A stretch of DNA of 64,000 nucleotides from an uncultured delta proteobacterium. GTDB taxonomy: Bacteria > Myxococcota > UBA727 > VGSZ01. The position numbers and the translations under genes were made by a program. The notes below the pieces were generated by a model. The model was not told where the DNA came from, ran no database searches, and saw only the letters and a program-made list of their open reading frames with translations. This document shows, piece after piece, positions 29,967 through 33,452 of the stretch. The stretch spans positions 480,001 through 544,000 of the forward strand of contig CAVZJB010000004.1 in assembly GCA_963775425.1 (NCBI GenBank), written 5' to 3'. Each line of letters opens with the position of its first letter. The first letter of the stretch is position 1.

Positions 29967-31133
29967 ATGGACGTGTCCGTCCTCCCGCGCATCGCCGACG
30001 TCCCCGCGGCCGACTGGGACGCGCTCGCCGGCGACGACAACCCCTTCGTCGAGCACGCGTTCCTGCACGCCCTCGAGGAGTCCAAGAGCGTGGGCCCGCG
30101 CACGGGGTGGCTGCCGCAGCACCTCGTCGTCAAGGAGGGCGGCGCCCTCGTGGCCGCGTTGCCCTGCTACGTGAAGACCGACAGCTACGGCGAGTACATC
30201 TTCGACTGGCAGTGGGCCCGCGCCGCCGGCCGCGCCCGCGTCGACTACTACCCCAAGCTCACCGCAGCGGTGCCGTTCACGCCCGCCACCGGCCCCCGCC
30301 TCCTCGTCAAGCCCGGCGCCCCCGTCGAGCGCGCGCGCAAGGCCCTCGCCGAGGGCATGAAGCTCCTCGAAAAGGAGCTCGGCTGCTCGTCGTCACACGT
30401 GTTGTTCTGCCGCGACGACGAGGCCGCGTCGCTCGTGGACAACGGCTTCGGCCGGCGCGCGTCGCTGCAGTACCACTGGCGAAACGGCGGGTACGACAGC
30501 TTCGACGGCTTCCTCGCCGCCCTCCGCCACGAGGAGCGCAAGCAGATCAAGCGCGAGCGCCGGCGCGTGGCGGAGTCCGGCGTCGACGTCGAGGTCATGA
30601 ACGGCGCCGACGTCCCCGACGCCCTCTGGCCCGCCGTCTTCTCGCTGTACACCTCCATCAGCGACCGCAAGTGGGGCCGCCCCTACCTCACCCGCGCCTT
30701 CTTCGATCTCATGCCGAGGCATCGCGCCGTCGTCGTGCTCGCGCGCCAGGCCGGCGCCGTCGTGGCCATGACGCTCTCGTTCGAGAAGGGCCCGCACATC
30801 TACGGCCGCTACTGGGGCTGCTCCGAGGAGATCCCCGGGCTGCACTTCGAGCTCTGCTACTACCGGCTGCTCGAGCGCTCCATCGCGAACAAGGGCAGCC
30901 TCGTCGAGGCGGGCGCGCAGGGTGAGCACAAGCTCAAGCGCGGCTTCCTCCCCGTCGTCACCCACAGCGCGCACCACATCACCGACCCGCGCTTCTCCGC
31001 GGCGGTCATGCTGTTCCTCGAGGAGGAGCGCGCGGCGGTGCTCGAGGAGCAGCAGCTCCTCCTGCAGCACGGCCCCTTCAAGGACGGCGCCGCGCCCGAC
31101 CGGCCGCTCGTCGCCGGCGTCCCCGGGCTGTGA
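29967..31133 (+). CDS. DUF482/COG3146 FemAB-like GNAT-fold protein
   Basis: NPF..HAFL.ALE, GWLPQH, SYGEYIFDWQWA, YYPKL..AVPFTP, YGRYWG, LHFELCYY, EAGAQGEHKL.RGF. Confidence 0.9.
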   Translation: MDVSVLPRIADVPAADWDALAGDDNPFVEHAFLHALEESKSVGPRTGWLPQHLVVKEGGALVAALPCYVKTDSYGEYIFDWQWARAAGRARVDYYPKLTAAVPFTPATGPRLLVKPGAPVERARKALAEGMKLLEKELGCSSSHVLFCRDDEAASLVDNGFGRRASLQYHWRNGGYDSFDGFLAALRHEERKQIKRERRRVAESGVDVEVMNGADVPDALWPAVFSLYTSISDRKWGRPYLTRAFFDLMPRHRAVVVLARQAGAVVAMTLSFEKGPHIYGRYWGCSEEIPGLHFELCYYRLLERSIANKGSLVEAGAQGEHKLKRGFLPVVTHSAHHITDPRFSAAVMLFLEEERAAVLEEQQLLLQHGPFKDGAAPDRPLVAGVPGL

Positions 31134-31142
31134 GACGTCCTG

Positions 31143-31148
31143 TGTCAA
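31143..31148 (-). promoter_or_regulatory. Outward-facing -35 hexamer TTGACA at the IS110 end (circle-junction promoter)
   Basis: Joining the ends at the core gives TTGACA-17 nt-CAACCT pointing into the putative bridge RNA. Confidence 0.6.
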
Positions 31149-31171
31149 CCACCGCGCTGCGTCACGCCATC

Positions 31172-32377
31172 TCAGGCGGCGAGCGCGGCGGCGCGGCCGT
31201 GAAGGGCCGGGTCGTACGGGACGCGGGCTTTCCAGCACGCGTACAGCACCCGGAGCCACGCACGAGCGAGGATGCGGGTCGCATGCGGGTGGTCGTGGCC
31301 GCGAGCGCGGGCAGCGTCGTAGAGGGCGGCGGCCCATGGCGAGCTGTGTCGCGAGTTGTCGGCCCAGAGGGTCACGGCGGAGCGCAGGTGCTTGTTGCAC
31401 GCCCACCGGAACGCGACGCCGACGTGCTTGCCGGACGCGAACGTTACGGGGCACACGCCAGCCTCGGCCTCGAGGTGCTCGTGGCTGTCGAAGCGCGCGC
31501 GCTCGTCGCCGAGCTCGCTGAGAATCTGCGCGGCGTTGATGCGTCCGCTGCGCGGAAACGACATCACGATGTGCCCGTCGGGGTGCGCCTCGACGGCGTG
31601 TTCGACGGCGGCGCTGAGCTTCTTGAGACGTGCGACGACGATGTCGAGGACCGCGACGAGGTGCTGCACGGCTTCCCCCTTCGCCTCGGCCTCCATCTCG
31701 CCGCACTTGCCGCTGGGCGCACCTCGCAAGCGGCCCAGGAGCTCGGCGACGTCCCTGCGACCGGAGTAGTGGTTGCGCGCCAGGAACGCTTCGAGCCGCT
31801 TCTCGCCGACGCGCTCGGCGTGCTGCGGTGTCGGGTACCTCCCGAGGAACGCCAGCGCGATGGGCGAGTCGATGTCGCGGAAGATGCACGCGGCGCCGGC
31901 CCAGAAGCTCTCAACGAGCGCGCGCAGCTGGTTCGCCAGTGCAACCCGCTCGGCAACGAGGTCGCCGCGTGCGCGAACGAGGGCACGCAGCGCCTTCGTC
32001 TCGTCTCCGAGCGGCGTGAGCGTCTTGAAGCGATGCCCATCGGTGCGCAGCAAGTCTGCCAGCAGGTAGCTGTCGCCGGGGTCGCTCTTGGCGCCAACGC
32101 TCGAGTAGCGCGGACGCGTCGCTTTCACGACGTTCGGGTGAATCGGCACGACGTGGAATCCCGCATCGACCAGCGTGTCGACGACGAGCCCCGTCGGCCG
32201 CTCGATGGCGATGCGCAGCGGCGCTTCCTCAGTGAACCTACGGAGCTTCGCCACAGCGCCGGTGAGACCCTCCTCGGTGTGCTTGACGACGAGGCGGAGC
32301 ACGACGCTGCCCTTGTCGTCGATGACGCAGACGGCGTGTTCGTTCGCCGCCCAATCCAAACCTGCAAAGTACGACAC
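31172..32377 (-). CDS. IS110-family DEDD transposase/recombinase
   Basis: FAGLDWA (D), IAIERPTG (E), KSDPGDS (DD); C-terminal Tnp domain AEAGVCPVTFASGK (catalytic Ser), CNKHLR. GTG start after AAGGAGG. Confidence 0.95.
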   Translation of the reverse strand: MSYFAGLDWAANEHAVCVIDDKGSVVLRLVVKHTEEGLTGAVAKLRRFTEEAPLRIAIERPTGLVVDTLVDAGFHVVPIHPNVVKATRPRYSSVGAKSDPGDSYLLADLLRTDGHRFKTLTPLGDETKALRALVRARGDLVAERVALANQLRALVESFWAGAACIFRDIDSPIALAFLGRYPTPQHAERVGEKRLEAFLARNHYSGRRDVAELLGRLRGAPSGKCGEMEAEAKGEAVQHLVAVLDIVVARLKKLSAAVEHAVEAHPDGHIVMSFPRSGRINAAQILSELGDERARFDSHEHLEAEAGVCPVTFASGKHVGVAFRWACNKHLRSAVTLWADNSRHSSPWAAALYDAARARGHDHPHATRILARAWLRVLYACWKARVPYDPALHGRAAALAA

Positions 32378-32409
32378 GACGGACCTCCTTGTTGCGGTAC
32401 CGTCCCCCG

Positions 32410-32585
32410 GGCTGGGAGCCTTGATCGGTTGCTCATTGACAGGCGCTCCGTCGTCGTCAGCAAACATCGTCGGGCGCAACGTCCTGTAGCCGCTTCAAGG
32501 CTCCCGGCTTCGTCGAGGGGGCGGGTCTCACAGGGGCCGTTCACCGGCAAGCGAGCGCGGCCCTCCCCGACGAAGCCCGGGAGAC
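32410..32585 (-). ncRNA. Putative IS110 bridge RNA (target-binding and donor-binding loops)
   Basis: Two adjacent stems (gcttcgtcg/cgacgaagc; ggagccttga/tcaaggctcc) enclose 7-9-nt segments that match the element's target flanks and donor ends. Ends approximate. Confidence 0.8.
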
Positions 32586-32732
32586 GGCGCCGGGAAGATC
32601 GCTCAACCCGTCACCGCGGCGTAGAGGTTGTCCAATGAGCGGCCCGGCCGCTCCCGCGGGGCGTGACCCAGCTCGCGCGCACCTGTGTTGACGCGCGTCC
32701 GGCGCCGGGGGAGCCGGTGCCCGGAGGTCTCC

Positions 32733-33452
32733 ATGAAGAACGCCGCCATCCTCGCCGCCGCCTTCGCCGGCGCCGTCGTGTTCGCCGCCTGCCCCGTCGC
32801 CGCCGCCACGGTCCACGGCTCGGGCACCGCCAGGACCGAGTCTCGCGCGCTGTCGGCGTTTTCGCGCGTGGCGCCGTCGGGCTCCTTCACCGTCGACATC
32901 GTCGCCGGTGACAAGCCCTCCGCCGAGGTCACCGCCGACGACAACATCGTCCCCCTCGTTATCACCGAGGTGAAGGGCGGCGTGCTCGCGGTCCACCTGA
33001 AGCGGAACACCAGCGTGCGCACCAAGACGCCCATCGTCGTCAAGATCACGGTGCCCTCGCTCGAGGGCGTCTCCGCGTCGGGCTCCGGCGACACCGCCGT
33101 CACCGGCGTCCCCGGCAAGGACGTGGCGCTCCTGCTGTCGGGCTCGGGCAAGCTCGCCTGGAAGGGCGCGGCCGACGCCGTCTCGCTCAAGAGCTCCGGC
33201 TCGGGCGCGGCGACGCTGTCGGGCACCGCCAAGAAGCTCGAGGTCCGCGTGTCCGGCTCCGGCGACGTCGACGCGGGCGGCCTCGCCGTCGACGACGGCG
33301 CCGTCAGCATCTCCGGCTCCGGCGCGGTGCAGGTGAACGCGAAGGCCACGCTCGACGCCCGCATCGCCGGCTCGGGCCGCGTGCGCTACACGGGCGCGCC
33401 CACGGTCACCAAGAAGATCACGGGCTCCGGCACCGTCGCGCCGGCGACGTAG
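32733..33452 (+). CDS. DUF2807 / head-GIN domain secreted protein
   Basis: Signal peptide, VHGSG...ESR, DDNIVPLV, repeated SGSG beta-helix units; GGAGG RBS. Confidence 0.85.
   Translation: MKNAAILAAAFAGAVVFAACPVAAATVHGSGTARTESRALSAFSRVAPSGSFTVDIVAGDKPSAEVTADDNIVPLVITEVKGGVLAVHLKRNTSVRTKTPIVVKITVPSLEGVSASGSGDTAVTGVPGKDVALLLSGSGKLAWKGAADAVSLKSSGSGAATLSGTAKKLEVRVSGSGDVDAGGLAVDDGAVSISGSGAVQVNAKATLDARIAGSGRVRYTGAPTVTKKITGSGTVAPAT

Follow-up and report, generated by a model that had tools for sequence, protein, structure and literature searches.

An IS110-group insertion sequence from a delta proteobacterium whose left end probably encodes an IS621-type bridge RNA

The DNA analysed here, called the window, is a whole stretch of 64,000 nucleotides from an uncultured delta proteobacterium (GenBank assembly GCA_963775425.1, contig CAVZJB010000004.1, positions 480,001 to 544,000), and coordinates below are window positions unless another contig is named. 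On its minus strand lies an insertion sequence (IS) of the IS110 group, 1503 bp long between its two CT cores, in which a recombinase gene is bordered by a non-coding left end of 260 nt and a non-coding right end of 37 nt. A preliminary description, made from the letters alone, had read positions 32410 to 32585 in this left end as a bridge RNA with four guide segments legible against the insertion site. Our analysis leads us to regard the region, with a probability of roughly 0.88, as the left end of an active IS110-group insertion sequence encoding a bridge RNA of the IS621 type. This assessment draws on the sequence layout, the mobility of the element, covariation within helices, and covariation between guides and flanks across homologues. 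The identification made in the preliminary description is thus upheld by protein matches, structure and guide covariation, while its left target guide and its core had to be redrawn.

The insertion sequence and its recombinase

The element and its coding part comprise the following features.

31133–32639, minus strand: whole insertion sequence, including one copy of the CT core per junction (100%-identical copies in unrelated flanks)
31172–32377, minus strand: recombinase gene, 401 aa, GTG start (Pfam and NCBIfam matches)
32384–32390, minus strand: Shine-Dalgarno sequence AAGGAGG, 6 nt ahead of the GTG (sequence)

The host genome (18 contigs, 8.26 Mb, 71.9% G+C) holds four full copies of the element at 100% identity and one truncated copy. 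The flanks of these five copies are unrelated and have in common only nCG directly before CTCA on the left and CAG directly after CTCA on the right. Because identical copies lie in unrelated flanks with shared junction bases, the element is mobile, recently active and site-selective, a mobile insertion sequence of the IS110 group. As expected of this group, it lacks long terminal inverted repeats, its left end is long and its right end short, and the junctions of the copies have just CT(CA) in common. The truncated copy (C18:86446-87382, locus L005) retains the left junction and the first ~940 nt, after which unrelated sequence follows; a 478-aa frame on the opposite strand of that unrelated sequence has no Pfam match. 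Further copies were sought in 100 related genomes, where just matches of 24–73 nt and at most 49 bits were obtained, with no extra insertion site and no empty site among them.

The recombinase matches PF01548 (1.5e-32) and PF02371 (2.3e-14), and it scores 183 bits, against a cut-off of 140, with the NCBIfam model NF033542, 'IS110 family RNA-guided transposase', over residues 4–385 of 401. Its DEDD residues, D8, E59, D99 and D102, do not vary among seven homologues, and Ser315, in an ASGK motif, falls opposite the serine of the SG pair in the IS621 protein of known structure. By sequence, then, the 401-aa protein is assigned to the DEDD/Ser recombinases of the IS110 family. The environmental subfamily around it is very large, with 7934 among 8000 scored proteins reaching E<=1e-20. 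The suggestion that the system is possibly uncharacterised is fair for the element itself but not for its kind, which is known and which NCBI already names RNA-guided.

Fold of the left end

Homologous elements were taken from a scan of species genomes, which gave 10 loci, and from a metagenome scan, of whose 164 relatives the best 80 were kept (52–68% identity). The 300 nt upstream of the gene were aligned for the 76 loci with enough sequence, leaving out L016 and L020 (the same element as L015), L017, 11 loci with less than 230 nt upstream, and L094. Left junctions of homologues were placed through this alignment and right junctions through the invariant TTGACACAG motif and a fixed spacing; 48 left and 63 right junctions were usable after three false ones had been removed (false right-end matches at L055 and L103 and a false left end at L059).

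Two clades depart from the usual left end and gave no data on left targets or right donors. In L012, L013, L059, L062, L068, L076, L096 and L115 the left end reads GATCnTCGATCCTGG where others show the core followed by CACTGG; conservation extends further upstream there, so that either the true left junction lies outside the 300-nt extract or the end has been rearranged, and the right donor guide of this clade nevertheless specifies CTCACTG. In L095, L100, L102-L104, L106, L109, L110, L114, L116, L117 and L119 a conserved CGCCGCGGTGGGCAACCCGTGTT replaces the normal left junction; the L095 type also has a conserved CCGCGGTGGGCAACC, and a TTGACA lies inside the left end. The elements of this second clade may sit in a conserved repeat or belong to a larger unit with an internal promoter of its own.

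The predicted structure is made up of the following parts, where columns are those of the upstream alignment.

32399–32588, minus strand: structured body, namely closing helix, target-binding arm and donor-binding arm (fold, covariation)
32591–32610, minus strand: possible 5' stem-loop ahead of the closing helix (RNAfold on the window sequence alone)
32576–32588, minus strand: closing helix, 5' strand, pairing with 32399–32412 (duplex energy, family pairing)
32559–32577, minus strand: target-binding arm, outer stem, 5' strand, holding most of GGGCCGC (columns 20-33 covarying with 81-96)
32536–32548, minus strand: inner hairpin of the target loop, GCCG GUGAA CGGC (columns 46-49 with 64-67, 98.6% of cells paired)
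32506–32522, minus strand: target-binding arm, outer stem, 3' strand (covariation)
32494–32505, minus strand: donor-binding arm, outer stem, 5' strand (columns 101-106 with 200-205, 92.6% of cells paired)
32443–32477, minus strand: inner stem of the donor loop (GCGC/GCGC) and variable hairpin (columns 129-132 with 170-173, 100% paired, almost invariant)
32414–32425, minus strand: donor-binding arm, outer stem, 3' strand (10-bp repeat, covariation)
32399–32412, minus strand: closing helix, 3' strand (duplex energy, family pairing)

Folding of the region, which the preliminary description had proposed as a check, came out in its favor: under RNAfold the 265-nt left end reaches -143.2 kcal/mol, compared with a mean of -114.1 (sd 5.7) for shuffled sequences (z=-5.09), and none of the 200 shuffles was as stable. 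Both of the stems it had named were recovered, the 9-bp stem GCTTCGTCG/CGACGAAGC at 32568-32576/32507-32515 and the perfect 10-bp repeat at 32495-32504/32415-32424. Each arm of the predicted RNA consists of an outer stem, an internal loop and an inner hairpin. RNAalifold, run on 74 distinct left ends, gave 27 pairs, of which 22 show compensatory changes. When a 30-pair structure was scored on the same left ends, 93.5% of the cells were paired, as against 75.9% after shuffling and 41-46% with the partner slid. Changes on both sides were seen in 24 of the 30 tested pairs, and G-U pairs are retained, which fits an RNA read from the minus strand.

The closing helix, absent from the RNAalifold prediction, was proposed by eye and then tested separately. 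Its duplex energy in the window is -33.2 kcal/mol; within the family, the strands of one and the same locus average -15.7 kcal/mol compared with -10.5 kcal/mol for mismatched pairs, the own pair being the better one in 67 of 73 loci. Its cells in the alignment are paired to 64.1% (52.1% when shuffled), so that its support is weaker than that of the inner helices. Since the target arm and the donor arm are separated by a spacer of 1 nt in the window, the closing helix would make the body of the RNA a tight three-way junction. This structured body ends 8 nt ahead of the ribosome-binding site.

Guide segments and core

Within the two loops we place the left and right target guides (LTG, RTG), the left and right donor guides (LDG, RDG), and short handshake guides, as listed here together with the DNA that surrounds the two junctions.

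32640–32646, minus strand: left target of the window copy, CGGGCCG (flank comparison)
32638–32639, minus strand: core CT of the left junction, between left target and right donor (copies, homology with the CT core of IS621)
31133–31134, minus strand: core CT of the right junction, between left donor and right target (copies, homologous junctions)
31128–31132, minus strand: right target of the window copy, CACAG (flank comparison)
32550–32558, minus strand: putative LTG GCGCUCGCU, top strand of left-target positions 1-7 plus the CT core (register scan)
32527–32533, minus strand: putative RTG CUGUGAG, reverse complement of CT plus CACAG (flanks, family covariation)
32525–32526, minus strand: putative target-loop handshake guide AC, complementing donor positions 6-7, GT (family counts)
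32478–32487, minus strand: putative LDG ACAGGACGU, the 9-nt ACAGGACGT at 32479-32487 and the following U (last 9 nt of the right end)
32432–32438, minus strand: putative RDG CAAUGAG, reverse complement of CT plus CATTG (left-end tip, family covariation)
32430–32431, minus strand: putative donor-loop handshake guide CA, of which C complements target position 7 (G at position 7 in 5/5 own sites)

Each guide was compared across the family with its DNA partner, as defined by the rules of IS621, and permuted partners served as the control. The four strings named as guides in the preliminary description are all present on the minus strand (GGGCCGC at 32557-32563, CTGTGAG at 32527-32533, ACAGGACGT at 32479-32487 and CAATGAG at 32432-32438), and its order of target loop first and donor loop second is confirmed. 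The covariation with flanks that it had proposed to examine in homologues bears out its RTG, LDG and RDG, each of which tracks its DNA partner far above the permuted controls, but not GGGCCGC as the LTG.

At each of the four full copies the RTG matches 7/7, the DNA there reading CTCACAG. In the family it agrees with target positions 10 to 14 (t10-t14) at 0.89-1.00, compared with 0.41-0.97 for permuted partners (z=8-11, n=62), and as this signal stops sharply past t14, the RTG comprises 7 nt, exactly CUGUGAG.

For the LTG, a 9-nt window was slid along the 5' side of the target arm in 48 element/flank pairs, and a signal was seen at one offset only. At this offset, 32550-32558 in the window, 207 of 336 comparisons at left-target positions 1-7 match (0.62 versus 0.39 permuted, z=10.5). 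The guide so placed, GCGCUCGCU, contains the core and ends in CU as in IS621, and the LTG had thus been set six bases off. Read from left-target position 7 to position 1, the proportion of matches runs 0.98, 0.79, 0.71, 0.52, 0.65, 0.46 and 0.21. At the five own sites of the element the LTG matches 5, 5, 8, 6 and 5 of 9 bases. The genome also has 208 unoccupied CTCACAG sites, where the mean LTG match is 2.24/7, in comparison with 3.8 at the five occupied sites (Monte Carlo P=0.012). Because the occupied sites stand above the unoccupied ones and yet match imperfectly, the left target appears to be read, but loosely, and a half-site bias of targeting is possible. Other registers were tried and set aside: the one at offset -4, GCCGCGCTC, is perfect at copy 2 and reaches z=0.8 in the family, and 15 further offsets were all at chance across the family.

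In the donor loop the LDG equals the tip of the right end at 9/9 in the window, and in the family it follows its partner with z=4.6-8.2 at the variable positions (n=41). The U that follows it could form a U-G wobble pair with the first core base. The claim that the left guides largely exclude the core accordingly fails for the LTG, which ends in CU, and holds roughly for the LDG, which would reach the first core base through this possible wobble. The LDG base opposite core position 8 (32478 and its counterparts in homologues) is A in 27, U in 24, C in 24 and G in 1 of 76 loci, so that Watson-Crick pairing with the core at this position is feasible in about one third of the loci, unlike the description of IS621. 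The RDG matches the tip of the left end at 7/7 in the window and donor positions d12-d14 in the family at 0.98-1.00 (0.50-0.83 permuted, z=6-8, n=44). Around the donor segment there is also a 5-bp sub-terminal inverted repeat, GGTTG at 31144-31148 and CAACC at 32625-32629, of which just 2-3 bp (GGT/ACC) recur in homologues, resembling the short sub-terminal inverted repeats of the IS110 group.

Directly after the RTG, 73 of 76 loci have AC, and GT occupies donor positions 6-7 in 62 of 63. The base following the RDG agrees with t7 at 1.00, compared with 0.91 for permuted partners (z=6.9), and t6 gives no signal. In the window the target-loop AC fits the donor GT at both bases, and the donor loop fits at one of two, C against target G7. 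Within the window, no pairing is seen between either handshake segment and its own partner, which fits the rule that cognate pairing would block the exchange.

To estimate chance agreement, the 258-nt left end was shuffled 5000 times with its dinucleotides preserved. Of these shuffles, 6 contained the LDG word, 26 the RDG word and 84 the RTG word, and none contained all three; GGGCCGC turned up in 477, and some 7-mer of the 15-nt left flank in 2461. The three guide matches are therefore beyond chance, while the match of GGGCCGC is as expected by chance in sequence of 68% G+C.

CTCA is present at both junctions of the window copy (32636-32639 and 31131-31134), in all copies, and at 55 of 63 homologous right junctions, and it had been taken for a 4-nt core. 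At the remaining eight right junctions the target is not CA at positions 10-11, and seven of these eight agree with the RTG; CA is kept at 48 of 48 homologous left junctions. Since the right junction agrees with the RTG and the left one retains CA, the exchange point lies before position 10. These junctions fit a CT core that, like the core of IS621, is cut behind its T, and by sequence the CA beyond it is read as two bases that the right target and the right donor happen to share. C occupies position 10 in 62/63 targets and 48/48 donors. The core letters of LTG, RTG and RDG are together CT in 69 of 76 loci and GT in 4 (of actinobacterial type), with two partial cases. At locus L019 the core is GC at the left junction and GT at the right; its LTG ends in GC, and its RTG and RDG specify GT. 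This pattern is what would be left if strands had been exchanged in a staggered manner at a target whose core is mismatched.

The window copy lies between a FemAB_like gene (29967-31133, 9e-140) and a DUF2807 gene that starts at 32733. The last codon and the stop codon of the FemAB_like gene overlap the right target and the core, and the insertion point is exactly at this stop codon, in a site that resembles a terminator hairpin. It falls within an inverted repeat of the host, with CCGGGC in the left flank and GCCCGG in the right (31120-31134, 32636-32655), and the flanks of copy 2 have short complementary stretches as well.

Proposed mechanism, rival explanations and known systems

Two further sequences, one in each end of the element, are candidates for a promoter.

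31143–31148, minus strand: TTGACA, candidate -35 box of the right end, with 8 nt between it and the core (family conservation, IS621 precedent)
32625–32630, minus strand: CAACCT, candidate -10 box in the left end, 17 nt past the -35 box across the circle junction (weak match)

Homologous right ends have TTGACA in 52 of 63 cases, TGGACA in 7 and TTGACC in 4, and this hexamer is not conserved for the sake of pairing because it lies mostly outside the partner of the LDG. When the best hexamer was sought at 16-19 nt, with hexamer and spacing both picked to fit TAnnnT, it fell at 17-18 nt in 42 of 42 two-ended loci and had the form nAnnnT in 38 of them. We infer that the promoter would be completed only in the circular form, mirroring IS621, with a transcript that probably starts near 32618. 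A terminator scan of the integrated copy gave one terminator-like site, at chance level.

We carry over from IS621 that the RNA exists at all, together with its promoter, the reaction chemistry and the order in which strands are exchanged. On this model the element would excise as a circle, whose junction of right and left end would join the -35 box (TTGACA) to the weak -10 box (CAACCT). From this junction promoter an RNA of ~200 nt would be made, which would fold into two internal-loop arms under a common closing helix. The handshake pairs (AC with donor GT, C with target G) would be expected to form after the first strand exchange, and the DEDD/Ser recombinase (D8, E59, D99, D102, S315) would cut and join at the CT core.

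Several results weigh against an IS621-type bridge RNA at this locus. A scan of the integrated copy found no consensus sigma-70 promoter, and the -10 box at the junction is weak. The family LTG matches left-target positions 1-7 at just 0.62, with no signal at position 1; against the window's own site it reaches 5/9 (6 with wobble), and a single site of the five reaches 8/9. In the family the LDG does not match at core position 8 (0.22), so that the core is not covered by Watson-Crick pairing. The IS621 protein is remote from the recombinase (E=3.9e-7) and significant over the C-terminal domain alone, and in Rfam 15 at E<=10 positions 30900-32900 gave seven weak and irrelevant matches, the best with 22 bits where the threshold is 50. 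Additionally, the homologues are interrelated, so that z-scores and P-values overstate independence, and their junctions rest on alignment and a fixed spacing rule rather than on inspection one by one.

These points have to be set against three other ways of explaining the region. In the guide map of the preliminary description GGGCCGC (32557-32563) is the LTG, CTCA is the core, and the left guides stop short of the core. GGGCCGC does equal the left flank of the window copy plus one core base at 7/7, and CTCA is shared as widely as described above; at the other four copies, however, GGGCCGC matches 4, 4, 4 and 5 of 7 bases, and its register is at chance over the 48 homologous pairs (83/336, z=-0.8). 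Its first four bases, GGGC at 32560-32563, pair with GCCC at 32519-32522 in a helix whose columns (30-33 with 81-84) covary with many compensatory changes (30/84, 31/83), and the C that follows is nearly invariant whatever the flank. With the crossover placed before position 10 by the loci that have non-CA targets, we give this map next to no credence. Scarcely more can be said for the idea that the structure functions at the DNA level or is simply a 5' leader in the mRNA of the transposase (a binding site of the recombinase, or a device of translation control), the matches being sub-terminal repeats with no role as guides. LDG and RDG do share the element with their partners, so that their covariation could reflect repeated protein-binding sites, and a body that stops 8 nt short of the ribosome-binding site would suit such a leader. 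Yet the partners with which RTG and LTG covary lie in external DNA that differs from copy to copy, each loop has, like those of IS621, one guide that reads as the top strand and one that is complementary to it, the compensatory changes and G-U pairs of the helices are those of the minus strand, and the core letters of three guides switch jointly from CT to GT.

Harder to dismiss, although we still think it unlikely, is a bridge-RNA insertion sequence with effectively half-site targeting, in which the site would be selected by the RTG together with two or three bases on the left side of the core, and the remainder of the LTG would count for little. At the five own sites the left side shares just C-G at positions 6-7 while the right side is a perfect CTCACAG, the family LTG signal declines from position 7 to position 1, and a 2026 preprint, available to us in part, reports half-match insertion for IS621 (10.64898/2026.08.31.748434). 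Against this, left-target positions 2-5 beat permutation (z=3-6.7), and homologues such as L101 and L123 show LTG matches of 8/9 with AT-containing guides. The excess of LTG matches at occupied over random CTCACAG sites (P=0.012) likewise speaks against half-site targeting, and six unoccupied CTCACAG sites match the LTG at 6/7. Taking the two sides together, we retain an IS621-type bridge RNA with the LTG at 32550-32558.

Bridge recombinases are under development as programmable tools for the insertion, excision and inversion of DNA, and new orthologues are being screened for better activity. The element is a fully annotated natural example from a genome of 72% G+C, with a guide map corrected by means of 76 aligned homologues. 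For reprogramming the correction is of practical consequence, as editing GGGCCGC as though it were the LTG would break a helix and not retarget the enzyme.

In IS621 (Durrant et al. 2024; Hiraizumi et al. 2024), to judge from those parts of the published accounts that were available to us, the long left end encodes the bridge RNA, with a target loop of LTG and RTG followed by a donor loop of LDG and RDG, and a promoter with its -35 box in the right end is rebuilt upon excision (PMC11208160; PMC11208158). The present element resembles it in the DEDD RuvC-like domain joined to a Tnp domain with a catalytic Ser, in an RNA predicted for the long left end with target loop before donor loop, and in the candidate -35 box of the right end. 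The likeness extends to loops that are internal loops between an outer stem and an inner hairpin, to guides that read as top strand on the 5' side and complement it on the 3' side, to a 9-nt LTG ending in the CT core, and to handshake bases after RTG and RDG. The two differ in the RTG, which has 7 nt here and 4 nt (G77-G80) in IS621, and in the LDG, which ends here at donor position 7 (at 6 in many homologues) whereas that of IS621 reaches the first core base. They also differ in the near-universal C at position 10, which is not described for IS621 in the available parts of PMC11208160 and PMC11208158.

A further difference concerns the overall shape of the RNA. The RNA of IS621, as described, runs from a 5' stem-loop through the target arm and a flexible linker to the donor arm, and in the IS621 synapse the loops lie at a distance of ~80 A and probably belong to two RNA molecules (PMC11208158); in this partial view of the source no closing helix is described, whereas the arms here are 1 nt apart under a common closing helix. 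It is conceivable, if on balance doubtful, that the bridge RNA of this widespread soil subfamily is a closed three-way junction with arms ~1-4 nt apart and, with its 7-nt RTG, its invariant C after the core and its loosely read left target, a distinct mechanistic variant. If so, a junction this rigid would imply either that two RNAs per synapse are an obligate arrangement or that the complex has a different geometry; the closing helix and the near-absent linker thus bear on the question of one versus two RNAs per synapse. The term 'three-way junction' was not met among the full-text matches listed for bridge RNA or IS110, and the supplementary tables of Durrant et al. may already include the subfamily and its structure.

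Other relatives place the element in the same way. The transposase of ISCro4 (PDB 9t56), a solved bridge recombinase compared by protein alone, belongs to the same two-domain family, and its C-terminal domain aligns at E=9.8e-7, remote as it is in sequence. The IS1111 group has the same DEDD recombinase family and, in the part of Durrant et al. at hand (PMC11208160), the same two-loop guide logic; its bridge or seek RNA, however, lies in a long right end with long sub-terminal inverted repeats, whereas here the RNA is assigned to the 260-nt left end and the right end has 37 nt. NF033542, whose curated cut-off the window protein passes, is a model that covers the protein alone and not the RNA or the guides. 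Bridge RNAs were predicted in 85.7% of IS110 elements in the same partial account (Durrant et al., PMC11208160), and the element described here is a further example of this known bridge-RNA IS110 system, ordinary as biology.

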